52,908 nt of DNA. It comes from Parcubacteria group bacterium. GTDB taxonomy: Bacteria; Patescibacteriota; Minisyncoccia; 2-02-FULL-40-12; IGHO2-01-FULL-4-A. Position 1 is the stretch's first letter. Each line of letters opens with the position of its first letter. Below are positions 2,541-36,268 of the stretch, one piece after another. The translations under genes and the position numbers were made by a program. The notes beneath the pieces were generated by a model. The model worked only from the letters and a program-made list of their open reading frames with translations. It ran no database searches and had not been told where the DNA came from. The stretch is from contig JBDRCU010000010.1 of NCBI GenBank assembly GCA_043821485.1, forward strand, positions 1 to 52,908, read 5' to 3'.

Positions 2541-3161
2541 ATGGCATTCATTCTAGGCAGAAAAATCGGAATGACGCAGATATACAAGGAAGATGGAACC
2601 GTTGTACCAGTAACGGTTATTGATGCTGGTCCGATGACAGTCGTACAAATTAAGAATGAGGAAGTTGACGGATACGATGCAATTCAATTCGGATCCGGTA
2701 ATGCTAAGAAAATGTTAATGCCTCAAAGAGGCCACGCAAAAGCATCAAAATCAGAACCGAAAGTTTTGCGAGAATTACGAATAGAAGATGCATCTGAAGA
2801 TATGAAAAATTTGAAGGTTGGAGACAAGATGGATATTTCTGCTTTTGCAGAAGGAGATAAGGTAAAAATATCGGGCATTTCAAAAGGAAAAGGATTTCAA
2901 GGAGTTGTTAAGAGACATAATTTTGCAGGTGCCCCTGCCAGTCATGGACATAAAAGTGTTTTGCGTCATGGAGGTTCAACTGGTCAGAGATTTCCCCAGC
3001 ATACGCTTAAGGGTCTTCGCATGGCAGGAAGAATGGGCAATGTAAATAGATCTGTACGAGGACTTGAGGTTATAGCGGTTAACAAGGAAGAGGATACCTT
3101 AGCAGTAAAAGGTGCAGTACCCGGACGCAAAGGAACATTGTTAGTTATTCGTAGTATTTAA
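2541..3161 (+). CDS. rplC: 50S ribosomal protein L3
   Basis: GRKIGMTQ, SKGKGFQGVVKRHNF, MAGRMG, KGAVPG; start set to ATG 2541 (MAFILGRK). Confidence 0.97.
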   Translation: MAFILGRKIGMTQIYKEDGTVVPVTVIDAGPMTVVQIKNEEVDGYDAIQFGSGNAKKMLMPQRGHAKASKSEPKVLRELRIEDASEDMKNLKVGDKMDISAFAEGDKVKISGISKGKGFQGVVKRHNFAGAPASHGHKSVLRHGGSTGQRFPQHTLKGLRMAGRMGNVNRSVRGLEVIAVNKEEDTLAVKGAVPGRKGTLLVIRSI

Positions 3162-3162
3162 T

Positions 3163-3810
3163 ATGGAAACCAAGCTATACAATCAGGAAGGGAAAGAAGT
3201 CGGATTAGTTGATTTGCCTGATGAAATTTTTGCAGTGCCTGCAAATGACGTTTTGATGCATCAGGTTGTGGTTTCACAAGCATCCAATCAAAGAAGTCCT
3301 ATTGCGCATACAAAAGGACGCGCAGAACAGCATGGAGGCGGACGCAAGCCATGGAGGCAGAAAGGAACAGGACGAGCAAGACATTCTTCGATAAGATCTC
3401 CTTTGTGGAAGGGCGGAGCAGTAACATTCGGCCCAACCAAGGATCGTAATTTTACAAAAAAGATAACAAAGAGTATGCGCCGTAAAGCATTGCTGATTGC
3501 GCTTTCATCCAAGGTAGCAGACAGCCAATATATTGTTGTAGATCAGATTAGATTCGAAAATGCAAAGACTAAGGAAATGCTTGGAGCATTAGAACGCATG
3601 GCAGTTAATTTTAAAGATTACAAAGACAAGGATACAGTATTGGTAGTTACCCCAAAGAAAAACAGAAGCGTTGAAACAGCATCTAACAATGTTAAAAGAA
3701 TTAATACGCTGCCGGCAAATAGTTTGAATGCAAGAGAGATATTATCAAAGAAGTTTTTGATATTAACAAAAGATTCAATTGGTATTATTGAAAGAACATT
3801 TAAAGTTTAA
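3163..3810 (+). CDS. rplD: 50S ribosomal protein L4
   Basis: GGGRKPWRQKGTGRARHSSIRSPLWKGG. Confidence 0.98.
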   Translation: METKLYNQEGKEVGLVDLPDEIFAVPANDVLMHQVVVSQASNQRSPIAHTKGRAEQHGGGRKPWRQKGTGRARHSSIRSPLWKGGAVTFGPTKDRNFTKKITKSMRRKALLIALSSKVADSQYIVVDQIRFENAKTKEMLGALERMAVNFKDYKDKDTVLVVTPKKNRSVETASNNVKRINTLPANSLNAREILSKKFLILTKDSIGIIERTFKV

Positions 3811-3811
3811 T

Positions 3812-4222
3812 ATGGGATTATTCAGCAAAAAAAAGGATAAAGGCGATAAGAGGAAAGAAGATGTAAAACCTACACCTAAGGATGATATTGTTGAGACTGA
3901 AGGTGAAGTTGAGAGAAAAGTTGAATTGCCTAAGATTGATGACGAAAGAGTTTATCAGATGATACTTGGTCCGCATGTTACTGAGAAGGCGTCATTTCTA
4001 GCAGCTGATAGAAAATATGTATTCCGCGTACATCCTAGTGCGAACAAGATACAGATTAAAGAATCAATCCAGAAGCTATACAAGGTAGATGTCACTGGTG
4101 TTCAGATTATAAACATTCCAGCCAAGCAAAGAAGAATGGGACGAAGAGTTGGATACAGAAGTGGATACAAGAAGGCTATAGTTACATTAAAGGAAGGTAG
4201 TCAAATAGACTTAGTTGCATAA
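3812..4222 (+). CDS. rplW: 50S ribosomal protein L23 with charged N-terminal extension
   Basis: PHVTEKA, ANKIQIKESIQKLY, YKKAIVTL; start set to ATG 3812. Confidence 0.95.
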   Translation: MGLFSKKKDKGDKRKEDVKPTPKDDIVETEGEVERKVELPKIDDERVYQMILGPHVTEKASFLAADRKYVFRVHPSANKIQIKESIQKLYKVDVTGVQIINIPAKQRRMGRRVGYRSGYKKAIVTLKEGSQIDLVA

Positions 4223-6999: not shown

Positions 7000-7215
7000 A
7001 TGAAATACATTGATTTACAAAGGAAGAGTATGGATGAATTACAAACTATTCTTAAGGATACAAGGGTTCAGCTCGGACATTTACAATTTGAGCTTGCAAA
7101 CAAGGCATTGAAGGATACAAGTAAATTAAGAAAAGCAAAAATGGATATTGCTCAAATTATGACAGCATTGAATAGAAAAGTGACTGAGCAAATGACCGAA
7201 ACCAAAGAAGCATAA
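7000..7215 (+). CDS. rpmC: 50S ribosomal protein L29
   Basis: 71 aa, helical, DIAQIMT motif, position between rplP and rpsQ. Confidence 0.92.
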
Positions 7216-8958: not shown

Positions 8959-9357
8959 ATGAGTCCAATAGCAAATATGCTGACAATCTTAAAGAATGCA
9001 CAAGCAGTAGGAATAGAATCCGTAGCTGTTCCTTTTTCGCGTGTTAAATTCGATATTGCCAATGTATTGCAGGAAAAAGGTCTCATAAAATCAGTTGAGA
9101 AAAAGAAACGCAAAGGAAAGAAGGTTGAGCATGACTTTTTGCATATAGTATTGATGTATAATGATGGCGTTGGAGTAATTAATGGAATCAAGTTAATGTC
9201 TAAGCCATCACGAAGACTGTATGTTAAGAAAGGAGAACTTCATAAAGTAAGACAGGGATATGGAATAGCTATTGTGAGTACCTCTAAAGGAATCATGGAA
9301 GGCAATAATGCTAAGAAAGCAGGAGTTGGCGGAGAAATAATTTTTGAAATTTGGTAA
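8959..9357 (+). CDS. rpsH: 30S ribosomal protein S8
   Basis: PIANMLT, SKPSRRLY, STSKG, GVGGE. Confidence 0.97.
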   Translation: MSPIANMLTILKNAQAVGIESVAVPFSRVKFDIANVLQEKGLIKSVEKKKRKGKKVEHDFLHIVLMYNDGVGVINGIKLMSKPSRRLYVKKGELHKVRQGYGIAIVSTSKGIMEGNNAKKAGVGGEIIFEIW

Positions 9358-9366
9358 TAAATATAT

Positions 9367-9909
9367 ATGAGTAAGATAGGCAAACAACCAATAATAATAC
9401 CGAGCGGCGTCACAGTAACAGTTGGCGAGAATTCTATTACAGTTAAAGGTCCGAAAGGAGAACTTGTGCGGGATATCGTCCCGAATGTTGTAGTTGAGGT
9501 AGAAGGCGAAAGTGTGATCGTAAAGCCAAAGGACGGAGATATAAAACATTCTGCTTTTTGGGGGCTTATGCGTGCACTCATTGCAAATATGGTTGAAGGA
9601 GTAGTAAGTGGTTTTGAAAAAATACTTGAATTCACTGGCGTGGGATACAAAGCAATCGTTCAGGGAGATAATCTTGAGCTTAGTCTCGGATTTTCACATA
9701 CAATTAATGTAAAAGCACCGCAAGGCATAACATTTGAATCAGATAAGAGCAGTATTACAATACGAGGTATAGATAAAGAAGCTGTAGGTCAAATAGCTGC
9801 AGAAATAAGGTCATATCGCAAGCCAGAGCCATATAAAGGAAAAGGTATAAGATATAAGGGTGAGCATATTAGGCGTAAAGTAGGCAAGAAGGCAGCAGGT
9901 ACTGCATAA
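9367..9909 (+). CDS. rplF: 50S ribosomal protein L6
   Basis: MSKIGKQPI, GPKGEL, GVGY, PEPYKGKGIRY. Confidence 0.98.
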   Translation: MSKIGKQPIIIPSGVTVTVGENSITVKGPKGELVRDIVPNVVVEVEGESVIVKPKDGDIKHSAFWGLMRALIANMVEGVVSGFEKILEFTGVGYKAIVQGDNLELSLGFSHTINVKAPQGITFESDKSSITIRGIDKEAVGQIAAEIRSYRKPEPYKGKGIRYKGEHIRRKVGKKAAGTA

Positions 9910-15340: not shown

Positions 15341-16051
15341 ATGCATCTTTCTGTCATAATTCCGGCTTTTAATGAATCCAAGCGCATTGTGGAGACTTTG
15401 CATTACATTGATACTTATCTTAAGAAACAGGACTATGACTATGAGATAATACTAGTAGACGATGGTTCTGCTGATGATACGGTTGAAGTTGTTAGAAATT
15501 TGAAAATTAAGAATCTTCGCATTATTGAGAATGAGGAGAATCGTGGCAAAGGCGTTGTTGTAAAACAGGGCATGTTAGAAGCCAAAGGCGAATTAAGGCT
15601 TTTTATGGATGCGGATAACTCAACAACGATTGATCAGATAGAAGCACTCTTGCCTCATTTGGATAAAGGCTATGATGTTGTCATTGGTTCGCGCCGTGTT
15701 TATGGAGCGCAGATTGAAATTCATCAGTCATGGATTAAAGAATTTCTTGGTAAACTCGGTAATCTTTGGATTAGATTTTGGGCAGTGTCTGGTATAAATG
15801 ATACGCAGGCTGGATTTAAACTTTTTACTGCAAAGTCTGCAAATACAATATTTGAAAGAATTACTATTGATCGTTGGGGACTTGACTTTGAAGCACTTGC
15901 AATTGCACGCAAACATAAATTTAAAATTAAAGAAGCACCAATCAAATGGTCCAACGATGAACGATCTAATGTAACAACAGGAGGATATATTAAGACACTT
16001 CTTGAAGCAGTGAAAGTTTGGTGGAATCTTTTAACAGGTAAGTATAAATAA
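15341..16051 (+). CDS. GT2 polyprenyl-phosphate glycosyltransferase (dolichyl-phosphate beta-glucosyltransferase/ALG5-like)
   Basis: SVIIPAFNE, VDDGS, NRGKG, FMDAD, DTQAGFKLF, RWGLDFE. Confidence 0.9.
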   Translation: MHLSVIIPAFNESKRIVETLHYIDTYLKKQDYDYEIILVDDGSADDTVEVVRNLKIKNLRIIENEENRGKGVVVKQGMLEAKGELRLFMDADNSTTIDQIEALLPHLDKGYDVVIGSRRVYGAQIEIHQSWIKEFLGKLGNLWIRFWAVSGINDTQAGFKLFTAKSANTIFERITIDRWGLDFEALAIARKHKFKIKEAPIKWSNDERSNVTTGGYIKTLLEAVKVWWNLLTGKYK

Positions 16052-16052
16052 T

Positions 16053-16682
16053 ATGGATATTGGAATAATTGATGCAGTTGTAGATTGGGGTACTACTATG
16101 ACAGAAACCTGGGGCTATCTTGGAATTTTTATAACTCAATCACTTGAAAGCGTAATGATACCGATTCCATCTGAAGTGGTTCTGCCTTTGGGGGGATTCA
16201 TGTCTTCAATCGGAGAAATGAATTTATGGATGCTTATTCTTGTAGCAACACTAGCAAATCTTGTAGGATCCATAGTTGCATACGTGATTGGCGTCAAAGG
16301 AGGGAGGCCGATTCTTGAGCGTTACGGTAAGTATGTCTTGATAACTCATCATGAAATTGAACGCATGGAGAATCTTCTTGAACATCATGGCAGAAAAGTT
16401 GCATTTATTGCACGTCTTCTTCCAGGAATCAGAACCTTCAGCTCATTGATAATCGGAAGCGTAAGAATGCGTTTTTGGACATTTTTTTGGTATACGCTTG
16501 CAGGATCAGTAATATGGAATGGCGTACTCGCATATATCGGTTTTGCTCTTGGAGAACAATGGGAAGATATACATATATATTTCAGAAAATTTGAGATAGT
16601 TATCCTCGTATTAGTTGTGATTGCTGTAGCGTGGTTTATCATCCATCGTATAAGAATTATACGTAAGGAGGAAAATAAATGA
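16053..16682 (+). CDS. DedA family membrane protein
   Basis: LESVMIPIPSEVVLP, ARLLPGIRT, several TM segments. Confidence 0.93.
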   Translation: MDIGIIDAVVDWGTTMTETWGYLGIFITQSLESVMIPIPSEVVLPLGGFMSSIGEMNLWMLILVATLANLVGSIVAYVIGVKGGRPILERYGKYVLITHHEIERMENLLEHHGRKVAFIARLLPGIRTFSSLIIGSVRMRFWTFFWYTLAGSVIWNGVLAYIGFALGEQWEDIHIYFRKFEIVILVLVVIAVAWFIIHRIRIIRKEENK

Positions 16683-18418
16683 ACCAAGAAACAAAAACTT
16701 GTCAAAACTGCAAAAACGAGTTCATCATAGAACCAGATGACTTTGGATTTTATGAAAAGATAGGAGTGCCTGTGCCAATGTTGTGTCCTGATTGCAGGTA
16801 TCAGAGGCGTATTGCAAATCGTAATGAATGGAACTTCTATCATAGGGAATGCGATTTATGTCACAAGAAGATGGTCTCAATCTATAATCCTTCATACAAA
16901 GGTCTAGTCTATTGTCAGCCGTGTTTTTGGTCAGATGATTGGGATCCCCTTGAATATGGGCGGGACTTTGATTTTTCTCGTTCGTTTTTTGAGCAGTTTA
17001 AAGAACATCGTTTCGGGATTCCAAGGATTGCTCTTGCGAATGAAGGGAGTATAAATTCTGAATACACCAACCAATCCAACAACAATAAAAATTGCTACAT
17101 GTGTGTTGCAACAAATTTGTCAGAAAATTCTATGTATGGTAACTGGATTCAAAACAGCAAAGAATGTGTTGATTGCTGGAACATGAAAGAGTGTGAAATC
17201 ATGTATGAATCTCTTGACTGCTTAAAATGTTACGGATCTGCGTTTTTGGAAACGTGTGTGAATACTCATAATTGTTATTTTGGATTTGAGTTGCATGGTT
17301 GCAATGATTGTTTTGGGTGTATCAACTTACGTAATAAATCGTATTGTTGGTTCAATGAGCAACTTACAAAGGAAGAATACAAGAAACGATTAGATGAAGT
17401 TGACTGGACGAATATTGAGATTAATAAATATAGACAGCAACTACAAAAATTGCAGAATAAACAACCAGTCAAATACTATCATGGAAATAGAATTGTTAAC
17501 TCAACAGGTGACTATATCGGTTTCAATCGAAATACTAGGAGCTCGTTTAATAGTTTTAAAAATGATAATTTAAGCTACGGACAGGATGCATGGGAGGCGC
17601 GAGACTGTAGAGATATGACAGAAACTCTTGATAATGAACTTGATTACGAAATGGAAGGGGCGGGATGGTCTTCTGGAAGCATTGTTTCTTGTAAAAACTG
17701 GTATTCTCCACGTGTATCTTACTCAGAGCTTACATTCTCCAGCTCTGACTTATTCGGTTGTGTTTCTATAAAGACGAAAAAGCATTGCATTTTTAATAAG
17801 CAATATTCCAAAGAAGAATACCTAGAGCTTAAAGATAAAATTATCAAACATATGAAGAAAACAAACGAATGGGGAGAGTTTTTTCCTATTGAAATTTCTC
17901 CATTTCCATACAATGACACTGTTGCACAAGACTATTTTCCATTGATCAAAGAAGAAGTCTTGAATAAAGGTTGGAGATGGTATGACAGACAGGACCGTGA
18001 TTACAAAATTACTAAGAGACATGATGAGATTGTAGGTACAATTGATGAAGTTACAGATGATATAGTAAATCAAGTCATAAGCTGTAAGAGTCAAGACAGT
18101 GAAGAATCAAAGAAGAGTCATATAAGCTGTGCAACTGCTTTTCGTGTAACCCCAGCAGAATTGCAATTTTATCGCAAGATGAAGTTACCCATTCCGGACA
18201 GATGTTTTCCGTGCAGATTGCGAGATCGTTTGAACCGTCGCAATCCTCGTAAACTTTATTCTCGCCAATGCGTATGTGATTATGAGATATACAAGAATAC
18301 CGCAGAACACAGTCATCACAAACAAGGGAGATGTCCCCATGAATTTGAAACATCATATGCTCCAGACAGGAAAGAAATAGTATATTGTGAGAAGTGTTAT
18401 CAGGCTGAAGTTGTATAG
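16679..18418 (+). CDS. Cys-rich zinc-ribbon/solenoid protein of unknown function, paralog 1
   Basis: CQNC...CPDC, CDLC...CQPC, Cys/Asn/Ser-rich middle, twin CFGC...N[EK]QxxKEEY units, C-terminal ETSYAPDRKEIVYCEKCY. Confidence 0.85.
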   Translation: MNQETKTCQNCKNEFIIEPDDFGFYEKIGVPVPMLCPDCRYQRRIANRNEWNFYHRECDLCHKKMVSIYNPSYKGLVYCQPCFWSDDWDPLEYGRDFDFSRSFFEQFKEHRFGIPRIALANEGSINSEYTNQSNNNKNCYMCVATNLSENSMYGNWIQNSKECVDCWNMKECEIMYESLDCLKCYGSAFLETCVNTHNCYFGFELHGCNDCFGCINLRNKSYCWFNEQLTKEEYKKRLDEVDWTNIEINKYRQQLQKLQNKQPVKYYHGNRIVNSTGDYIGFNRNTRSSFNSFKNDNLSYGQDAWEARDCRDMTETLDNELDYEMEGAGWSSGSIVSCKNWYSPRVSYSELTFSSSDLFGCVSIKTKKHCIFNKQYSKEEYLELKDKIIKHMKKTNEWGEFFPIEISPFPYNDTVAQDYFPLIKEEVLNKGWRWYDRQDRDYKITKRHDEIVGTIDEVTDDIVNQVISCKSQDSEESKKSHISCATAFRVTPAELQFYRKMKLPIPDRCFPCRLRDRLNRRNPRKLYSRQCVCDYEIYKNTAEHSHHKQGRCPHEFETSYAPDRKEIVYCEKCYQAEVV

Positions 18419-18490: not shown

Positions 18491-18712
18491 ATGCCTACAC
18501 TCAAAAGACGATTGAATATTTCACTTCCGAACTATCTCGATACGGCTATAAGATATCTGGCGAAGAGAGATCAGGTTCCTCAAGCAACCAAAGCAACTGA
18601 TTTGCTCGAACTTGCGCTTGAAATTGAAGAAGACGGAGTCTGGGATAAAATTGCAAGAAAACGCGACACCAAGGATGCCAAGTACATAGGACATGACAAG
18701 ACATGGTCATGA
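18491..18712 (+). CDS. Ribbon-helix-helix-type antitoxin
   Basis: RRLNISL beta strand followed by two helices, acidic LEIEED segment; ATGA overlap with the RelE-like gene. Confidence 0.8.
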   Translation: MPTLKRRLNISLPNYLDTAIRYLAKRDQVPQATKATDLLELALEIEEDGVWDKIARKRDTKDAKYIGHDKTWS

Positions 18713-18984
18713 GTTTTGATATCCTCTATCACGAATTAGTAAAAAAAGAAGATATACCAAAACTCTCCAAGCGAATGCGAGAGCGTATTCGTGGCGCAAT
18801 AGAAGATAAGTTGTATACGCATCCGGAAATATTCGGCAAGCCATTAAGAAAATCCCGCCATCCTTACAGAAAACTCCGCGTAGGAGATTACAGGGTTATT
18901 TTTAAAATGGAAAAAAGCATTGTTAAGGTGTTAATAATAGAGCACAGATCCGTGGTTTACAAACACCTTAAATTAAGGATATGA
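18709..18984 (+). CDS. RelE/ParE superfamily toxin
   Basis: GKPLR, YRKLRVGDYRVIF, IEHRSVVY; start set to ATG 18709. Confidence 0.92.
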   Translation: MSFDILYHELVKKEDIPKLSKRMRERIRGAIEDKLYTHPEIFGKPLRKSRHPYRKLRVGDYRVIFKMEKSIVKVLIIEHRSVVYKHLKLRI

Positions 18985-19003: not shown

Positions 19004-20767
19004 ATGACACAACCAGAAACAAAAACCTGTCAAAACTGCAAGAAAGACTTCATAATCGAGGCAGAGGATTTTAATTTCTATGAGAAAATGCAGGTTCCGC
19101 CTCCTACATTTTGTTGGAAGTGTAGATATCAGAGGAGACTTTCATATCGTAATGAGCGTAAACCTTTTTGGGCTATAAGTGCAAAATCAGGTAAGCGTAT
19201 TATGTCTATTTTCCCACCTGAAGCTGGTATGACAGTGTATGATGAAAAGGAATGGCGTTCTGATGATTGGGAGGCATTGGATTATGGAATGGAATATGAT
19301 TTCTCTAGACCCTTTTTTGAACAATTTCATGAATTAGCAAAAAAGGTTCCACGAAATGGACCTCACACGGAAGATAATGTAAATTGTGAATTTTTGATAA
19401 ATTCTGGCTGGGGTAAGAATAACTATCTTGTATGTAATTCAACTGGAGCTGAAGATTCTGCGTACGGCAATGCGATGGATTGGTGTAAATTTTGTTTTGA
19501 TGGTTCACATATTACTAAATGTGAGCGTAGTTATGGATCGTTTTGGGCGTGGAATTGTTACCATGTCCATTTTTCAACACGATCAGCTGATAATGTATCG
19601 TCCTGGTTTTTGTTTGGATGCAAGGGTATGGTCAATTGTTTTGGTTGCGTGAACATGACTAATAAAAGTCACTACATTTACAATAAGCCTTATTCAAAAG
19701 AGGAATATGAAACCAAAATTAAAGATATGCAACTTAATACTTGGTCAGGATTATTAAAGGCAAAAAAAGAAGCTATTGCATTTGCAAAGAAATTTCCTTA
19801 TGCATATCTGAATGGACTTTTTAATACTGATGTCACAGGTGAATACGTAAGCGAATCAAGTAATGTACATTATGGATATTTAGTACGTGGAGGTAGAGAT
19901 TTGAAATATGTTCAATACTTACAGGTTCCGGGTAGTGAAGATTCATATGATCTTACTATTTGGGGTGAAAAGAATGTTCGTGCATATGAAAATTCAACAT
20001 CTGGTTTGGGTGTCTCGAATTCAAAATTTTTGGAAGGATGCTGGTCAGAAATTTTAGACTCTGAGTACTGTATTGCTTGCAGAGGCATTACGAGTTGTTT
20101 CGGAAGCGTGGGTCTTAGACATAAGCAATATTGTATTTTGAATAAACAATATTCAAAAGAAGAATACTTGCTGCTTAGAAAGAAAATTATTCAGCATATG
20201 AATGATATGCCATTTGTAGATAAGAGAGGTAGGATATATAAATATGGGGAATTCTTTCCAATGGAACACTCGCCAGTTCCATATAACATTTCTTTGGTAA
20301 ATGAACATTTTCCTTTGACTAAGGAGCAAGCATTAGAACAAGGATACGATTGGTATGAACCGGCAAAGAAAGAATACAAAGCAACTATAACTGCTAACGA
20401 TATTCCTGATGCAATTGAGGATATGAAAGATTCAATACTCAAAGAGATAATTGAATGCATGGATTGTAAGCAGGTATATCGTATTCTTGAAATAGAATTT
20501 GCTTTTTTGCGCAGTGAAAAAATTCCAATACCACGTACATGCATTGATTGCAGGCATAACGAACGTATTTCACAACGGGCTAAGGCATTTTTGTATCATC
20601 GTAAATGTAATTGTAATGGTACTAAATCAAGAGATGGTATTTATTCGAACTTCGGAATCCATAAACACGGAAACGATCCATGTTCAAATGAATTTGAAAC
20701 TGCTTATGCGCCTGATGACGATAGGATTGTTTATTGTTTAGATTGTTTTTATCGAGAAGTGGATTAA
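19004..20767 (+). CDS. Cys-rich zinc-ribbon/solenoid protein, paralog 2
   Basis: Same architecture as 16679-18418 (ETKTCQNCK...FETAYAP...IVYCLDC); second zinc ribbon degenerate (SAKSG...YDEKEW). Confidence 0.85.
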   Translation: MTQPETKTCQNCKKDFIIEAEDFNFYEKMQVPPPTFCWKCRYQRRLSYRNERKPFWAISAKSGKRIMSIFPPEAGMTVYDEKEWRSDDWEALDYGMEYDFSRPFFEQFHELAKKVPRNGPHTEDNVNCEFLINSGWGKNNYLVCNSTGAEDSAYGNAMDWCKFCFDGSHITKCERSYGSFWAWNCYHVHFSTRSADNVSSWFLFGCKGMVNCFGCVNMTNKSHYIYNKPYSKEEYETKIKDMQLNTWSGLLKAKKEAIAFAKKFPYAYLNGLFNTDVTGEYVSESSNVHYGYLVRGGRDLKYVQYLQVPGSEDSYDLTIWGEKNVRAYENSTSGLGVSNSKFLEGCWSEILDSEYCIACRGITSCFGSVGLRHKQYCILNKQYSKEEYLLLRKKIIQHMNDMPFVDKRGRIYKYGEFFPMEHSPVPYNISLVNEHFPLTKEQALEQGYDWYEPAKKEYKATITANDIPDAIEDMKDSILKEIIECMDCKQVYRILEIEFAFLRSEKIPIPRTCIDCRHNERISQRAKAFLYHRKCNCNGTKSRDGIYSNFGIHKHGNDPCSNEFETAYAPDDDRIVYCLDCFYREVD

Positions 20768-20773
20768 ATATTT

Positions 20774-22534
20774 ATGCAACCAGAAACAAAAACTTGCCAA
20801 AACTGTAAAAACCAGTTCACAATAGAACCTGATGACTTTGGATTCTATGAAAAGATTGGTGTGCCTGCGCCAATGTTTTGTCGTCTTTGTCGTTTACAGC
20901 GTCGGATGATGTGGCGCAATGAACGTACTTTCTATAAACGTATATGTGATTTGTGTAAGAAAAATATTATCTCTACGTACAATGAGGATGTTCCGTTCCC
21001 TGTTTATTGTCAGAAGTGCTGGTGGGGAGATGAATGGGACCCTAAATCATATGGTCGTGATTTTGATTTTTCTCGATCGTTTTTTGAGCAATATCAAGAG
21101 CTTCTTGATTCTACGCCTGCTTTGTCAATAATGAATGATAATGAAATAGCTAGTGTAAATTCGGAATATGCTTATGACTTTGCCTTTGCAAAAAATTGTT
21201 ATCTTACGGCTGCAGGATGGTATTCGGAATATATTTTTTATTCATACTATACATGCTATGACAAAGAAATTTTGGATAGTTATATGATATTAAATTCAGA
21301 ACTTTGTTATGAATGCGTTGATGCTGAGCGCGATTCGCGCTGTAAGTATTGTATTCAATGTTTTGATTGTATGGATTGCATATTCAGCTTCGATCTTAGA
21401 GGATGCAATGATTGTATTTTAAGCGTTAATTTGAGGAATAAGAGTTATTGCATATTGAATAAACAATATACAAAAGAGGAATATGAAATTAAGAAAAAGG
21501 AGATGCAATTTAATAGAAGAGATAAAGTAGAAGAGTATAAAAAGCAATTTAATGAACTTATTTTAAAATATCCTCGAAAATACGCATTAATACTCAAGTC
21601 AGTTAACAGTACGGGACATGTAATTGAAAATTCAAAAAATGCCAAAATGTGTTTTGGTGTCGGTGATATAGAAAATTCTAAATATTTGATGAGTGTAGAT
21701 GGGGCCAAAGATTGTTATGATGTAGGAAATACCGGTCAGTCGGAGCTGTCTTATGAAAGTGTTACCCCTGATCAGGCGAATAGGGATATTTTTACAATAT
21801 ATTGTTGGAAATGTACAAATGCATATTATTCTAATAACTGTCATTCATGTCAAAATATATTTGGATGTTCGAATATGAAGAGTTCTCAATATTGTATATT
21901 GAATAAACAATATTCAAAAGATGAATACGATAATATGACTAAACGTATAATTAGTCACATGGAAGAAACTGGAGAGTATGGTGAATTCTTTCCTGCTGAT
22001 TTAAGCCCATATGCATACAATGAGACACAGGCACATGAATATTTCCCGCTGGATAAGGAACAGGCTGTTGAGGAAGGCTATAGATGGAGAGATAAGATAA
22101 AAAAAGATTACAAGATTACCATAGAACCAAAAGATGTACCGTTTACTATTTCAGAGATATCAGAAAATATAACAGAAGAAGTGATTGGATGTGAGCATGA
22201 AGGAAAGTGTAATGAGAAATGTACGGTAGCATTTAAGATTCATCCTTATGAATACCAATTCTATAAGAAGATGAACGTTCCTTTGCCAGTACTTTGTCCT
22301 AATTGCCGTTTTTATAAAAGAATCGAACTTTATCGTAACCCACCGAAACTTTGGCGTCGCAAGTGTCAATGTGCAGGGCAGACATCAGGCAATGAATTGT
22401 ATAAAAACACAGCATTGCAACATCAATCGCATTCGCCAGACCAGCATTGTTCGGAAGAATTTGAAACGAGCTACTCACCAGACAGAAAAGAAATAGTCTA
22501 TTGCGAGAAATGTTATCAGGCTGAAGTGGTTTAG
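20774..22534 (+). CDS. Cys-rich zinc-ribbon/solenoid protein, paralog 3
   Basis: Same architecture; termini nearly identical to paralog 1. Confidence 0.85.
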   Translation: MQPETKTCQNCKNQFTIEPDDFGFYEKIGVPAPMFCRLCRLQRRMMWRNERTFYKRICDLCKKNIISTYNEDVPFPVYCQKCWWGDEWDPKSYGRDFDFSRSFFEQYQELLDSTPALSIMNDNEIASVNSEYAYDFAFAKNCYLTAAGWYSEYIFYSYYTCYDKEILDSYMILNSELCYECVDAERDSRCKYCIQCFDCMDCIFSFDLRGCNDCILSVNLRNKSYCILNKQYTKEEYEIKKKEMQFNRRDKVEEYKKQFNELILKYPRKYALILKSVNSTGHVIENSKNAKMCFGVGDIENSKYLMSVDGAKDCYDVGNTGQSELSYESVTPDQANRDIFTIYCWKCTNAYYSNNCHSCQNIFGCSNMKSSQYCILNKQYSKDEYDNMTKRIISHMEETGEYGEFFPADLSPYAYNETQAHEYFPLDKEQAVEEGYRWRDKIKKDYKITIEPKDVPFTISEISENITEEVIGCEHEGKCNEKCTVAFKIHPYEYQFYKKMNVPLPVLCPNCRFYKRIELYRNPPKLWRRKCQCAGQTSGNELYKNTALQHQSHSPDQHCSEEFETSYSPDRKEIVYCEKCYQAEVV

Positions 22535-26374: not shown

Positions 26375-26403
26375 AATTTAGCATATTTTACATAATTGTG
26401 CAA
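26375..26403 (-). promoter_or_regulatory. Putative rnpB promoter
   Basis: - strand TTGCAC-17-TAAATT with extended TG, 6 nt before the predicted RNA 5' end. Confidence 0.6.
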
Positions 26404-26422
26404 GCGTGGTATTGTAAACCAC

Positions 26423-27808
26423 ATGAAGAAAGGAGAGCTTGTTTTTAGCGTATTATCAGTACCAGTAGACTATTTTATGCTGATACTTGCAGGTATTGCA
26501 ACGTACATGCTTCGTACGAGGTTTTTAGATGTTTTGCGTCCTGTACAATTCGAACTGAATTTGCCATTTGAGAGATATATAATATTGGTTTTAATAGTTT
26601 CCCTAATTTTTATAGCAGTTTACGCATTGTCAGGTTTGTATAATTTACGAAGTACAAGAAGCGTTATTGAGGAGTTTTTCAGAATAATTATTGCTTCAAG
26701 CGCCGGCATAATGGCAGTAATAGTATATATCTTCTTAAGTCAGGAATTGTTTGATTCAAGATTCTTGGTTCTAGGCGCATGGATAATGGCAATAATATTT
26801 GTTTCAATCGGCAGATTCATTATGCGCAAAGTCCAGAAAGCACTTATTGCCAAATATGACATTGGAGCTCACAGAGTCATGGTTATTGGTCAGGATGATT
26901 TATCAAATGATATTGTTACTGAAATGGAGCGAAATCTTGCTGCTGGTTACAGAGTTGTAAAACAATTGGCAAATCCTGAAGTAGATGAAGTTAAAGCTGC
27001 GATAGGTAATCCAGGGATAGATGAAGTTATTCTTGCAAATCCAAATTATTCTAAAGATCGCGTTCAGGAAATTGTAAATTTTTGTCATGAAAATCATTTA
27101 ATATTTCGTTTTGTTCCGAACATTCACAATACTCTTACTACTAATTTTGCAATAGATACTTTTATAGGCGTACCACTTGTTGAACTTCAGCGAACCCGTC
27201 TTGATGGATGGGGCAGAGTTGCAAAGAGAACCCTAGATATTGGAGGCTCATTGCTTGGATTAATAATTCTTTCTCCAGTATTCGCAATCACAGCGTTTGC
27301 AATAAAATGGGAAACAGCAGGACCAGTATTCGTGCATCTTGATCGAATCAGTCAGAACAAAAAACTCAAACTCCATAAGTTCAGATCAATGATAAATAAC
27401 GCGGAGAAGTACAAGGAGCAATTGATGAAATTTAATGAAAGGAATGACGGCCCAATGTTCAAGATGAAGAACGATCCACGAGTAACTAAGGTGGGAAGAT
27501 TCATCCGCCGAACACGCCTGGACGAACTTCCACAACTATACAACGTTCTGAAAGGGGATGTGTCTCTCGTGGGCCCGCGTCCTCATCAGCCTGATGAAAT
27601 AGAGCGGTATCAGAAACATCACAAGAAGGTCTTAGCAATCAAAGCAGGAGTAACAGGTATGGCACAAATTTCCGGAAGCTCTGATCTGCCATTTGAAGAA
27701 GAAGTAGCACTGGATACGATTTACATAGAAAATTGGTCTTTTTGGCAGGATTTGAAAATTATTGTTTTTACAATATTGAAACTATTTAGAGATAGGTCTG
27801 CCGTGTAG
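26423..27808 (+). CDS. Undecaprenyl-phosphate sugar-1-phosphate transferase (WcaJ/WbaP family)
   Basis: N-terminal TMs; [45 protein letters not shown]; start set to ATG 26423. Confidence 0.95.
27725..27808 (+). repeat. Direct repeat copy A: last 84 nt of the sugar transferase
   Basis: Hand alignment to 28546-28629 gives 69/84 identical nt with no gaps. Confidence 0.92.
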
Positions 27809-27849
27809 ATGTTATTGTTTTAAGGACATTTTTGTGCTAAATTGACAAT

Positions 27850-28167
27850 ATGACTGATGAATCGCGTGAAAAAATTAAAGAAGTTACAGATAAAATAGTC
27901 CGTGAATTCAATCCTGAAAAAGTGATTTTATTCGGTTCGCATGCATGGGGGAAGCCCACGCAAGATAGCGACGTCGACTTCTTTATTATTAAGGATGTTG
28001 AGAATACAAGAGAATTTGCCTCGCTCATAGATGGAGCTATATTCCCGCGTCCATTTCCAATGGATGTGGTTGTTTATAAGCCTGAACAAGTGGCAAAAAG
28101 TGAGAGTGAAGGAGATTTCTTTATTAAAGATATTCTTTCTAACGGTAAAGTACTCTATGCCCGGTGA
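27850..28167 (+). CDS. Minimal nucleotidyltransferase (MNT) antitoxin
   Basis: ILFGSHAWG...DSDVDFFI motif, 105 aa, overlaps the HEPN gene. Confidence 0.92.
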   Translation: MTDESREKIKEVTDKIVREFNPEKVILFGSHAWGKPTQDSDVDFFIIKDVENTREFASLIDGAIFPRPFPMDVVVYKPEQVAKSESEGDFFIKDILSNGKVLYAR

Positions 28168-28549
28168 ATCAAACGGTTACAAAAAGTGGATTTTAAAAGC
28201 AGAGGAAGACGAACGCGTGATCAGGTCTCTGCTGAAGCATCGCGACGCCTCGCCGTCAGGAGCATGTTTTTTTGCGTAGCAAATGGCAGAAAAGTTTCTC
28301 AAAGCTCTCCTGATTTTTAATAATAAATCATTCCGCAAAGTACACGATCTTTTGGATCTTGAAACCAGTATTATGGAGTTCCTGACGGAGATCAAAGACA
28401 TTCATGAAGATCTGCTGCGTCTTAACAGATATTATATTCAGACAAGATACCCGGGAGACTATCCTGAATTCGAGTGGAAAGAAGCAGAAGAAGCTCTGGA
28501 ATCAGCCGTTAGGGTGAAGGATTTTGTCTTCAAATACGTGAAATTATAG
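28157..28549 (+). pseudogene. HEPN domain protein interrupted by an in-frame TAG
   Basis: One frame reads MPGES...WILKAEED...ACFFA*QMAEKFLKA...KVHDL...YIQTRYP; TAG at 28277-28279 replaces the first Q of the xQQxAEKxLKA motif. Confidence 0.85.
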
Positions 28550-28629
28550 AAAACTGGTCTTTTTGGCAGGATGTAAAAATCATCATCTTCACGATATTGA
28601 AGCTATTTAGAGATAGGTCAGCGGTTTGA
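28546..28629 (+). pseudogene. Direct repeat copy B: orphan 3' end of the sugar transferase ([27 protein letters not shown])
   Basis: 27 codons plus stop, matching the C-terminus of 26423-27808 at 25/27 aa; no start codon. Confidence 0.9.
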
Positions 28630-28708
28630 CAAATATCAAGATAGCTAACATTCTTCACCCCGCGTAGCCAGCTGGAATTAATTCGTAGATATTAGTATAA
28701 TAAGATTA

Positions 28709-29482
28709 ATGATTTATCTTATCCTATTGATCATAATTCTCTTAGCCCTCTATCTTTTGGTAGGAGCTTTGATTTTATTTTGGATTTCGAAATGGTTTAA
28801 TCTCCAACAGCCTACCTACAAGAAATCTTTGAAAATTTTGGTTCTACTAGAGATTGTATCAATCGGAGCAGGCATACTATTTCGTTTTGTAGATCTAGGG
28901 ATTCTATCAGTCATTCTTCTTGCGTGCGTATCATTCGGTGTCTTTCACTACCTTCTTACGAAGAATTATAATAATTCTTGGACGAAATCTTTGAAAATTT
29001 ATATTGTTTTCGCCATCATTCTTACTATACTTTCTATTGCTGTAGTTATACCAATGCGACTTTATATTATAGAACCTTTCTACGTAGAAGGAGATGCAAT
29101 GACCCCTACATATAATAATAATGATTATCTTCTTGTGAAAAAATACAATGAAGATTATGAAAGAGGTGATGTTATTGTCTTTCGATATGACTTGAACAAT
29201 TTCTCAATTAAGAGGATTATAGGTCTGCCTAACGAAACGGTAGAAATAATTGGGGGTACTGAAGTAAAAATTTACAGCAAGACATATCCAGAGGGTACAG
29301 TTCTTGACGAGTCAGAATATTTAGACCCAGGACGGGTAACAATATGGGGCAATGTTATAGAGCTGGGCGAGGATGAATATTTTGTTATGGGAGACAATAG
29401 GCAACATAGTTCAGATTCAAGAGTTTTTGGCCCTATTAAAGAATCAGAGATTGAAGGAGAAGCCTTTTATAAACTTCCGTGA
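28709..29482 (+). CDS. lepB: Signal peptidase I family protein with extra N-terminal TM helices
   Basis: EPFYVEGDAMTPT, RGDVIVF, IKRIIGLP, YFVMGDNRQHSSDSR. Confidence 0.85.
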   Translation: MIYLILLIIILLALYLLVGALILFWISKWFNLQQPTYKKSLKILVLLEIVSIGAGILFRFVDLGILSVILLACVSFGVFHYLLTKNYNNSWTKSLKIYIVFAIILTILSIAVVIPMRLYIIEPFYVEGDAMTPTYNNNDYLLVKKYNEDYERGDVIVFRYDLNNFSIKRIIGLPNETVEIIGGTEVKIYSKTYPEGTVLDESEYLDPGRVTIWGNVIELGEDEYFVMGDNRQHSSDSRVFGPIKESEIEGEAFYKLP

Positions 29483-29525: not shown

Positions 29526-30614
29526 ATGAAAGTGGCTCTTGCTCATGATTATTTAATACAATATGGAGGCGCTGAAAGGGTTTTGGAGGCCTTGTGCGAG
29601 GTTTTTCCTGATGCTCCCATATACACCCTCCTCTATGATGATCGTTCTACGGGTAAGGTCTTCAAGGATAGGGAAGTGAATACTTCATTCCTCCAAAAAC
29701 TGCCTTTTGTTAGATCTCATCACAGACTTTTTCCATGGCTTATGCCTGTTGCAGTGGAGCAATTTGATTTGTCATATTTCGACGTAGTTATTTCTGTTTC
29801 AGCTTCTTTTGCCAAAGGAATCATTACCAAGCCACATACCAAGCATATTAATTACTGCCTGACGCCACCCAGATTCTTATGGGATGACAGCCATAAGCAT
29901 ATTAGCGAGTTTAGGCTTCCATGGGGTTTTAAAAGATTGCTCCCATACCTCATAACCTATTTACGAATATGGGATAAGGATGCTTCGCTTCGCGTAGATG
30001 AATATGTTGGAATTTCAAATTTTGTTTTAAATCGAATTAAAAAATATTACAACAAGGACGCGAAGATGATTTATCCGCCAGTAGATACTTCGAAGTTCAG
30101 GATTTCACCTGCAATAGGAGATTACTTTCTCATGATTGGTCGTCTAGTTCCTTACAAGCGTTTTGATCTTGCAGTGCAAACTTTTACTGCAATGAATTTG
30201 CCATTAAAAATTGTAGGGGATGGACCAGAGCGTCAAAGGCTCGAAGACATGTCAGGAGATAATATTGAATTTCTGGGCCTGCAATCCGACTACAAACTTC
30301 CGGAACTCTATTGTCATGCAAAAGCAATTATTTTTCCGCAGGAGGAGGATTTCGGAATCGTTCCTCTTGAAGCAATGGCATCAGGCAGGCCTGTAATTGC
30401 ATATCGCGGAGGGGGAGCCTTGGAAACAATTGTAGAAGGGGAGACAGGCGTCTTCTTTGATGAGCAAACAGAAATCGAATTAGCCAAAGCAGTTGGACAA
30501 TGCGTTATGACTCAATGGAATTTTCAAGCGATCCGTGAACATGCTTTGAAATTTGATAAGGAACGTTTTAAAAAAGAAATTGCAGAATTGGTAACACAGA
30601 AAGAACTGTTATAA
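29526..30614 (+). CDS. GT4 family glycosyltransferase
   Basis: HDYLIQYGGAERV, GRLVPYKR, EEDFGIVPLEAMASG. Confidence 0.93.
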   Translation: MKVALAHDYLIQYGGAERVLEALCEVFPDAPIYTLLYDDRSTGKVFKDREVNTSFLQKLPFVRSHHRLFPWLMPVAVEQFDLSYFDVVISVSASFAKGIITKPHTKHINYCLTPPRFLWDDSHKHISEFRLPWGFKRLLPYLITYLRIWDKDASLRVDEYVGISNFVLNRIKKYYNKDAKMIYPPVDTSKFRISPAIGDYFLMIGRLVPYKRFDLAVQTFTAMNLPLKIVGDGPERQRLEDMSGDNIEFLGLQSDYKLPELYCHAKAIIFPQEEDFGIVPLEAMASGRPVIAYRGGGALETIVEGETGVFFDEQTEIELAKAVGQCVMTQWNFQAIREHALKFDKERFKKEIAELVTQKELL

Positions 30615-35364: not shown

Positions 35365-35443
35365 CTGTTTAATATAGATTTTGAATAAAAATTCGTTGAT
35401 AAGGAATCTTTTTATGTTAGCACAATGTGATATAATATATTAT

Positions 35444-36268
35444 ATGTCGAGAAAAAAGATATCAATAAATTCAGGCGTACTTGAGGATCTTTATCTAAGA
35501 CGTAATTTATCGCCATATAAGATTGCCGGTATATTGAACTGTAGTTTTACAACCATAAGTAATCGCTTAAGGGAATATTCGATTCCTCTAAAGAGTCCAT
35601 CTTTTGCTAGGATGAGATATGCTAAATATGATTTTGATGAAGATTTAGTGAATAAAGCATATATTATAGGTTTCAGGATAGGTGATTTAAATGTTTATAA
35701 ACCAACAGAAAATTCTGAGACAATAATTGTAAGATGTCATACTACTCAATATGAGCAAGTAGAAGTTATGAAATCGTTATTCGAATCATTCGGGCATGTG
35801 CAAATTTCTTGCAACAAACAACATTTTCATGTAAATTGCTATCTTAATGGATCTTTCGATTTCTTATTAGATAGTGTTGATGATATGCTAGGTTGGATTA
35901 AGAAAAGATCTCATTCTTTAGCATTTATTGCAGGGTACGTAGATGCCGAGGCTAACTTGATAATTAATCAAGGAAAAGCACGATTTAAAATAGATGCATA
36001 TGATAAAGAAGTATTGCAGTGGATCTCAAATTGGCTTTCTGAAAATAATATTGAGAATAAACTTGGAAAGATATATAAACGAGGGCAGATATTGAAATGG
36101 AGGAAACCGTTCAGAAAAGATTTATGGCGCTTGAATATAAATCATGGATCCTCTATTGAACGATTTCTATTAGCTTCTTTGCCATATTTGAAGCATTCAA
36201 AAAGAATAGCGGATGCTAAATTATGCCTTGAGAATGTAAAGACAAGAAGGAAAAATGGAACAATTTAA
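35444..36268 (+). CDS. Free-standing double-motif LAGLIDADG homing-endonuclease-like protein with N-terminal HTH
   Basis: LSPYKIAGILNCSFTTISNRLREY (HTH), AYIIGFRIGD and AFIAGYVDAEA motifs; ATG 35444 follows TGaTATAAT; overlaps the lepA start. Confidence 0.85.
   Translation: MSRKKISINSGVLEDLYLRRNLSPYKIAGILNCSFTTISNRLREYSIPLKSPSFARMRYAKYDFDEDLVNKAYIIGFRIGDLNVYKPTENSETIIVRCHTTQYEQVEVMKSLFESFGHVQISCNKQHFHVNCYLNGSFDFLLDSVDDMLGWIKKRSHSLAFIAGYVDAEANLIINQGKARFKIDAYDKEVLQWISNWLSENNIENKLGKIYKRGQILKWRKPFRKDLWRLNINHGSSIERFLLASLPYLKHSKRIADAKLCLENVKTRRKNGTI

Follow-up and report, generated by a model that had tools for sequence, protein, structure and literature searches.

How does a small, putative toxin-antitoxin (TA) pair come to stand between two diverged copies of the end of one gene on a contig that lacks any recognizable integrase or transposase? 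This question is raised by a locus of a Parcubacteria group bacterium (assembly GCA_043821485.1), in which a sugar transferase gene (ST) is followed by genes of the MNT nucleotidyltransferase and HEPN families and then by a second 3' end of ST. We analysed the whole of contig JBDRCU010000010.1 (52,908 nt), referred to here as the window, and all coordinates are window positions on its forward strand. The contig is C10 of a genome, G000, which is an 877-kb metagenome-type assembly of 63 contigs with an estimated contamination of 4.4%. The sources of the nearest proteins place this genome in the Parcubacteria/Paceibacteria part of the Candidate Phyla Radiation (CPR), near Yanofskybacteria. The two 3' ends of ST are called copy A, which terminates ST, and copy B, which lies beyond HEPN; the glycosyltransferase gene further downstream is called GT.

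Two diverged gene ends around an MNT-HEPN module

An earlier reading of the bare sequence, the original prediction, held that the last 84 nt of ST recur beyond HEPN, and our comparison bore this out. The copies align without gaps with 69/84 identical nucleotides and 25/27 identical amino acids and close with different stops, TAG in copy A and TGA in copy B. The 15 differences are distributed 2/1/12 over codon positions 1/2/3. A repeat search returned the same pair at 80 nt and 85%, and a whole-genome self-BLAST found it at E=1e-17. ATAGAA is the exact start of the similarity and the stop codon is its end, and the flanks are unrelated (8/39 upstream positions match). The two 84-nt copies have a spacing of 821 nt and enclose an insert of 737 nt (27809-28545).

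The original prediction had further stated that the copies evolved as coding sequence and are not a fresh target-site duplication, and on both counts it agrees with our results. The comparison of A with B gave dN 0.031 and dS 1.86, a synonymous bias in which the synonymous sites are saturated and the protein is 93% identical. Neutral drift was simulated for one copy, asking for no more than two amino acid changes and a kept stop. This outcome appeared in 0 of 200,000 runs with 15 substitutions and in 5 of 200,000 runs with 11 substitutions, which rules out a fresh target duplication with later drift. The dN/dS values and the failed drift simulations together indicate that A and B diverged as functional, coding gene ends in separate lineages, and their joining is recent relative to that divergence. 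The nucleotide identity between A and B is 0.82, as against maxima of 0.75 and 0.74 with 29 orthologues; since the copies are nearer to each other than to any of these, both come from the same narrow group. The third-position GC content is 0.32 in copy A, equal to that of the whole ST, and 0.46 in copy B, a difference over 28 codons that is not significant. The frame of copy B has no start codon, so copy B is non-coding today, and its interpretation as an orphan small open reading frame (ORF) was ruled out.

ST orthologues were searched for in 61 genomes, namely G000 and 60 GTDB relatives, none of which belongs to the same genus. An orthologue was present in 60/61 genomes (G000 included), with a best identity of 73%, and the nearest ST protein among 5.8 billion proteins shares 83% identity (P0002). 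A scan for promoters and terminators over 27400-29000 yielded nothing above shuffled expectation.

MNT and HEPN are arranged as a two-gene module, adjacent and co-oriented with an 8-nt overlap. MNT carries a GSx10DxD-like stretch, GSHAWGKPTQDSDVD, and its best homologue anywhere is 72% identical. Two properties of HEPN go beyond the original prediction, namely an in-frame TAG and a stop that lies inside copy B, where the TAG at 28547-28549 is formed by the opening bases of the copy. When the in-frame TAG is read through, HEPN matches the Pfam HEPN profile from 1 to 114 of 117 positions (1.5e-23). This nonsense codon corresponds to a CAG-to-TAG change at a place where intact homologues of related genomes have QQ and the window has a stop followed by Q; a conserved Q is replaced, and the toxin gene of the pair is not intact. 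TAG ends 125/417 long frames in this genome, and no suppressor tRNA for TAG was found among its 40 tRNAs, which rules out recoding or suppression as the cause of the in-frame codon. Since TAG is an ordinary stop here, HEPN is a pseudogene. Weak support for the nonsense codon being real comes from a public groundwater run, one 159-nt contig of which matches the window without a difference across the TAG (28196-28354).

In type VII HepT/MntA systems, a DUF86-type HEPN protein with an Rx4-6H RNase motif is AMPylated by MntA. The window HEPN differs in matching PF05168 and not DUF86. The Rx4-6H motif is absent from it, as its C-terminal half, ...LNRYYIQTRYPGDYPEF..., lacks a His after Arg. By analogy only, the MNT-HEPN pair may act as a toxin-antitoxin. 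The only other HEPN gene of the genome (G000:C27:231-566, minus strand) also belongs to PF05168 and contains a single in-frame TAG at a different codon; the TAG codons in both HEPN genes of G000 are likely to reflect independent toxin inactivation. The features of the locus are collected in Table 1.

Table 1. Features of the ST locus in the window
Feature	Position	Strand	Basis
ST, polyprenyl glycosylphosphotransferase type, intact, ends in copy A	26396..27808	+	Pfam Bac_transf 3.6e-60, CoA_binding_3
Copy A, functional final 27 codons and TAG stop of ST	27725..27808	+	alignment, repeat search
AT-rich spacer, 41 nt, 24% GC, ST stop to MNT start	27809..27849	+	sequence
MNT-type nucleotidyltransferase, antitoxin-like, intact, 105 aa	27850..28167	+	Pfam Polbeta 6.4e-10, NTP_transf_2 4.7e-9
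HEPN (PF05168) pseudogene, 8-nt overlap with MNT, stop within copy B	28160..28549	+	Pfam HEPN
In-frame TAG nonsense codon, HEPN codon 40	28277..28279	+	sequence, homologue comparison
Copy B, orphan non-coding second ST 3' end, TGA stop, abuts HEPN end	28546..28629	+	alignment
Extra signal peptidase I, about 100-aa membrane N-extension	28709..29482	+	Pfam Peptidase_S26 1.1e-32
GT, family-1 glycosyltransferase, usual downstream neighbour of ST in relatives	29526..30614	+	Pfam Glycos_transf_1

Recurrence of the layout and the ST-GT junction

Relatives of MNT were gathered from 61 loci, which comprise 7 from the order, 14 from GTDB contigs, 13 from a phylum sample and 27 from a class sample. The order-level search gave a match in 7/105 genomes (G000 included), and the phylum and class samples gave matches in 14/401 and 21/401 genomes, respectively. 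Direct repeats of at least 30 nt on both sides of the MNT gene were found at 9/61 loci (L046, L060, L074, L079, L083, L108, L109, L113 and L115). Among 40 control loci chosen for ST or LepB, 2/40 had such a repeat, and one of these (L019) itself brackets an insert between ST and GT; the genomes behind the two counts are related and non-independent, and no formal test is claimed. Two of the nine loci have exactly the layout of the window, as independent loci on other host genes. At L060, in a metagenome-assembled genome of Acidobacteriota, a LysR gene is followed by MNT and by a HEPN that is truncated at position 90/117 of the profile and continues in frame into a second LysR tail; the repeat measures 146 nt at 79%, with 21/31 differences at third positions and dN/dS of 0.086/1.36. 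At L083, in another CPR family, a CTP synthase gene is followed by MNT and by a HEPN that is truncated at 94/117 and runs on into a second CTP synthase tail, with a repeat of 38 nt at 92%.

The remaining loci are of other kinds. Repeats that are non-coding or lie in promoter regions surround the modules of L046, L074, L079 and L115 (39-156 nt, 80-100%). L108 and L113 were dropped as orphan-end cases, as their modules lie between two full tandem paralogues, L109 is complex with repeats that are not colinear, and L076, with a weak repeat (E=0.003), was left out of the count. At L046, a 39-nt non-coding direct repeat (3142-3180 and 3958-3996, 90%) was noted, the upstream copy of which also precedes the other module of that genome. 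This genome, G021, carries two MNT-HEPN copies of the same family (L046/L047 on G021:C54 and L040 on G021:C61) that are 79% identical in nucleotides over the 5' part of MNT.

The host gene (ST, LysR or CTP synthase), the length of the repeat (38-146 nt) and the joint in HEPN (its end, profile position 90 or 94) are all variable. Therefore, the gene tail is not a built-in attachment site of the module and is taken from the context. The orphan copy abuts the end of HEPN in 3/3 cases of this MNT family (the window, L060 and L083), and HEPN is terminal or truncated there. Four loci suggest a survivorship effect in which a ragged joint may remove the end of the toxin and never the antitoxin.

The position of the module between ST and GT was compared with 29 related ST loci. 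In 12/29 loci no more than 40 nt separate the ST stop from the start of GT, and the gap is 100-200 nt in 3. The gap exceeds 300 nt (0.3-1.1 kb) and contains unrelated small ORFs in 8/29. In the other 6/29 no GT was seen in the first flank, and longer stretches, available for 5/6, placed GT 2.5-4.9 kb downstream in 3. Unrelated inserts thus separate ST from GT at 11 loci (8 with short gaps and 3 with long gaps), and they include PaaX_M/Cas2-like ORFs, an EF-hand ORF, a DUF5317 ORF and an HTH_38 (IS30-like) ORF. This variety of inserts in relatives shows that the ST-GT junction is an insertion hot spot. A PaaX_M/Cas2-like ORF of 180-192 aa was observed within the gap in two genera (L019, which is G013:C11, and L010), and the insert of L019 has a 38-nt, 87% direct repeat on its two sides (850-887 and 1425-1462).

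In the window, the ST-GT gap holds two accessory units, MNT-HEPN and then, beyond copy B, the signal peptidase I gene. An extra signal peptidase was found at this site in 0/29 relatives. The other LepB of G000, on C57, is 48% identical to the window signal peptidase, and the relatives have one strong LepB match each where matched, with 2/30 giving no match at the threshold. One of the 11 loci with inserts, L089 (G021:C10) in another genus, has in this gap a nucleotidyltransferase gene (NTP_transf_2 2.4e-14) with a 61-aa partner ORF, in reverse complement at 2256-2945. On either side of the pair stands a 79-nt stretch made up of the GT promoter and first 19 codons; the two copies are 88.6% identical, and the upstream one is the orphan and lies beyond the partner ORF. 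The 61-aa partner was not assigned to HEPN, as it had no match in Pfam with E values up to 10 allowed.

Recombination routes and rival explanations

A profile scan of all 58 ORFs on the 52.9-kb contig, 13 of which have no family, found no integrase, transposase or resolvase, in keeping with the statement of the original prediction that neither of the first two lies nearby. The genome encodes RecA (C14) and ComEC (C37), and elsewhere it carries genes for one tyrosine recombinase and for two or more serine recombinases (three Resolvase matches, one of them weak). The RecA profile itself is split (1-67 and 65-262) by about 1.3 kb inside one 808-aa frame (G000:C14:233-2371), which looks like an intein-type insertion.

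We give slightly more credence than doubt to the explanation that two diverged haplotypes of the hot spot recombined to form the locus, through homology-anchored, recombinase-free joining. In the route that we infer, haplotype 1 would have contributed ST end A together with MNT-HEPN, and haplotype 2 would have contributed ST end B together with the extra signal peptidase. They would have been joined by general recombination involving RecA, probably after DNA uptake, with no part played by an integrase or transposase. One crossover would have used homology in or near the gene end, and the other joint would lie at the very end of HEPN, 84 nt ahead of the ST stop. The full ST frame with copy A would have survived, and copy B, displaced downstream, would be a non-coding remnant. 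The crossover may be marked by the first 27 nt of the repeat, as 26/27 are identical there, including an 18-nt exact run that is the longest exact match between A and B. Third positions differ in 1/9 of the first nine codons versus 10/18 of the rest (Fisher one-sided p=0.033, from just 27 codons), and pairs of relatives show 0.54 and 0.62. These values hint at a crossover within the near-identical block at the left end of the repeat.

The joining could have taken place in several ways. Homology-facilitated illegitimate recombination (HFIR) would combine a homologous anchor on one side with an illegitimate joint on the other, a single crossover could have occurred with a circle of gene end and module, or an older insertion accompanied by a long duplication of its target could have been transferred with one crossover inside the repeat. 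The sequence fits all three routes and does not separate them. The original prediction had proposed integrase-free capture, for example by HFIR; the contig without an integrase favors the capture part of this proposal, whereas HFIR is only one of several recombinase-free routes. In each route the module is cargo and not the agent. The original prediction had also proposed that an incoming piece of gene 3' end plus TA module displaced the resident end. The idea of such a unit is strengthened by L060 and L083, but displacement of the resident end is only one of two possible directions. The signal peptidase is just as foreign to the site, so copy B with the peptidase could be the newcomer instead. 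The newcomer may equally have been copy A with MNT-HEPN, displacing end B, or end B with the peptidase, joined to a resident ST-MNT-HEPN.

Several observations weigh against this explanation. A module-free genome, a donor or a same-genus relative was found neither among the 60 relatives nor in the protein collection, so that a single genome underlies the reconstruction of the event. A metagenome scan with a degenerate pattern for IENWSFWQD returned 3 loci, all of them distant genes. Ordinary RecA recombination is inefficient between partners at saturated synonymous divergence, and the recombinases on other contigs could have acted in trans. A sliding identity comparison found no mosaic break in ST, and the hint of a crossover block comes from few codons. 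A and B are equally far from the relatives (mean nucleotide identity 0.648 and 0.664), and the C-terminus of P0002 is intermediate, sharing an L with A and an I with B, so either end may be the resident one. The excess of flanking repeats over the control loci likewise draws on non-independent genomes.

Two rivals would also account for an insert between repeated ends. An old insertion accompanied by a long duplication of its target may have created identical 84-nt copies, one of which was later overwritten through homologous recombination or gene conversion with a diverged allele, or the unit may have passed to a diverged relative with a crossover inside the right-hand repeat. Such insertions are documented for restriction-modification (RM) genes, with duplications of 30-420 bp and no mobility genes, mostly in naturally competent species (PMC2853133). 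The near-identical first 27 nt followed by divergence would suit a crossover within the repeat, and the non-coding repeats around other MNT-HEPN modules (L046, L074, L079 and L115) are in line with it. We nevertheless think this history unlikely, because it takes two events and not one, because identical repeats at this site were found in no genome, and because plain drift after the duplication is excluded. A remnant of a site-specific integrative element, of the kind of phage 21/e14 in icd or a cis-mobilizable element (CIME), would instead carry a spare ST end in its attP, with the core in the first approximately 27 nt and the integrase lost or supplied in trans. The near-identical block with its exact run, followed by divergence, could be read as core plus arm, and the tyrosine and serine recombinases of other contigs could supply the enzyme. 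This is, in our judgement, quite unlikely, given that 0/58 contig ORFs encode a recombinase and that the unit would measure only 821 nt. The same MNT family stands beside LysR and CTP synthase ends or within non-coding repeats (38-156 nt for all of these), with variable HEPN joints. Moreover, no ST end lies beside the module in the MNT loci whose neighbours were read, the 61 loci not all having been scanned, which means that the gene end is not intrinsic to the module.

The other rivals concern the origin of copy B. If it were the last remnant of a tandem ST paralogue, the remainder of which was deleted together with the end of HEPN, there would be a parallel in L108 and L113, where modules lie between tandem paralogues that share repeats. 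The original prediction had named upstream paralogue remnants at copy B as evidence that would speak against it, but the flanks are unrelated, no ST-like sequence lies upstream of copy B, and the HEPN match continues to position 114/117 of the profile and reaches the repeat. A second ST end was found within 1.5 kb in 0/29 related loci, and relatives have one orthologue each, their second ST-family match being a distant paralogue of 26-31% identity elsewhere. A decayed paralogue is accordingly very improbable. An assembly chimera of two co-occurring strains through the shared gene end might be suspected from the fragmented metagenome-type assembly and its contamination; one sequencing run containing 6% of sampled words yielded 9 short contig pieces, one of them identical (159 nt) and none over a junction, which speak neither for nor against a chimera or module-free variants. 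However, the longest exact match of A and B is too short, at 18 nt, to mislead k-mer assemblers, a chimera would swap ends and not keep the two as tandem copies separated by 737 nt of unique sequence, and L060 and L083 show the same layout in independent assemblies, so we regard an artefact of this kind as hardly credible. Virtually no credence is due to A and B being the variable and template regions (VR and TR) of a diversity-generating retroelement (DGR). The genome does contain two true DGRs, on C44 and C47, in each of which a gene 3' end recurs some 430 nt further downstream, but no reverse transcriptase or bAvd is present on the contig studied, and the mismatch spectrum refutes this reading, as A/B mismatches fall on A in 4/15 (copy B) or 3/15 (copy A) cases, compared with 22/22 and 13/15 at template adenines in the true DGRs. 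The latter lie at G000:C47:4428-6317 (13/15) and G000:C44:14900-16841 (22/22), each with VR, TR, bAvd and RVT_1.

A broader proposal is more tentative, and we consider it doubtful at present: MNT-HEPN, and perhaps small addiction or defence modules generally, may spread between diverged lineages with no recombinase of their own, as units of a conserved gene end plus the module. The unit would loop out or be released, be taken up and re-enter at a short identical stretch of the gene end. The target gene would be rebuilt and its old end orphaned, and only ragged joints on the toxin side would survive. Such survival would explain why the orphan always lies beside a damaged or terminal HEPN. If true, this would correspond, for TA pairs, to the virus-like life cycle that has been suggested for restriction-modification genes, and it would account in general for the movement of chromosomal TA modules in tiny CPR genomes without mobile-element enzymes.

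Known systems and further observations

The locus can be set beside several known kinds of insertion. Insertion accompanied by a long duplication of the target was reportedly described for restriction-modification genes by Nobusato et al. in 2000. Furuta, Abe and Kobayashi (2010, PMC2853133) report RM-gene insertions with target duplications of more than 30 bp and no mobility genes, mostly in competent species, and a review ascribes recombinase-free insertion with long duplications to RM systems only (PMC3874152). The window resembles these cases, the nearest in form among known systems, in having an addiction-type unit, no mobility gene and direct repeats in the range of tens to hundreds of bp, some of which overlap the 3' end of a neighbour. 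As in the definition of Furuta et al. 2010, the insert is below 20 kb and contains the whole module, the repeat is longer than 30 bp, and no mobility gene is present. The cargo differs, being MNT-HEPN and not RM genes. The window repeats are 82% identical, whereas the cases of that study are 93-100% identical and were validated by an empty site. As the differences between the window repeats are almost all synonymous, the repeats stem from two lineages instead of a single duplication.

HFIR has in common with the history proposed for the window that foreign DNA enters through one homologous anchor and one illegitimate joint without a recombinase, and RecA and ComEC are present here. The process was reportedly observed in natural transformation by de Vries and Wackernagel in 2002, Prudhomme et al. 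in 2002 and Meier and Wackernagel in 2003. Its experimental products are said to be usually an insertion with a deletion in the recipient, whereas the window shows recipient sequence duplicated. C-terminal displacement at Rhs loci was reportedly described by Jackson et al. in 2009. An HFIR-type C-terminal displacement that leaves orphan 3' ends was proposed for Rhs and type VI secretion system (T6SS) loci (Kirchberger et al. 2017, PMC5361080). Displacement at Rhs, contact-dependent inhibition (CDI) and T6SS loci resembles what may have happened in the window in that a new 3' end and a small gene enter, the old end is moved downstream, and no integrase is known. It differs in that a variable toxic tip and its immunity gene are exchanged, whereas the window has a conserved housekeeping-type tail (25/27 aa) and an unrelated TA pair.

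Phage 21 and e14 in the icd gene of E. coli, as well as CIMEs, bring a spare, synonymously diverged 3' end with the insert and leave the original end as an orphan. The window is similar in its whole target gene and orphaned end, but those elements have a tyrosine integrase and a fixed core, whereas the window has a unit of 0.8 kb, no contig integrase and variable joints among its counterparts. Among the papers listed by full-text literature searches, no report was found of an MNT-HEPN or other TA pair inserted with a long target duplication. Insertions that need no recombinase and leave a gene end duplicated or displaced are already known as a type of event; what is added here is a TA pair as cargo.

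Chromosomal TA modules are patchy and clearly mobile, yet mostly lack a transposase or integrase. The window and its two look-alikes offer a concrete and datable footprint of a recombinase-free route for a TA pair, and the saturated synonymous divergence of the gene ends means that the exchange crossed a wide phylogenetic gap. The wider significance would rise if the toxin-side rule and the cycle of looping out and re-entry prove general. For annotation, orphan gene tails next to small accessory genes in CPR genomes are to be read as insertion joints and not as small ORFs or assembly errors, and they need to be distinguished from DGR repeat pairs in the same genome.

Repeated gene ends and small inserted genes were also seen elsewhere in G000 and in the window. 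On G000:C27 (L092), there are four copies (611-683, 7022-7153, 9323-9441 and 15534-15665) of the 3' end of a hybrid histidine-kinase/receiver gene. This end terminates two paralogous kinases, and the copy at 7022-7153 is an orphan located downstream of one kinase at a distance of 2.2 kb; genes for a cupin and an M10 peptidase lie between the kinase and the orphan tail. An SSF transporter gene just upstream of the HEPN-MNT pair on this contig, which was not found in 30 relatives, has as its last 24 codons a 71-nt fragment (94%) of the same kinase 3' end. A small island at G000:C38:38576-41581 contains a HicA/HicB-like pair, named by reading the sequence, and another nucleotidyltransferase gene; an intergenic repeat of 80-121 nt occurs there three times (85-93%), each time before a small membrane-protein gene.

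Within the window, a 73-aa ORF and a ParE-family toxin gene (18491-18984) lie amid three paralogous genes of about 580 aa that belong to no family (16679-18418, 19004-20767 and 20774-22534) and have diverged end segments in common. A 295-aa ORF with a LAGLIDADG_3 match, which is homing-endonuclease-like, is located at 35381-36268, directly upstream of lepA and overlapping its start.

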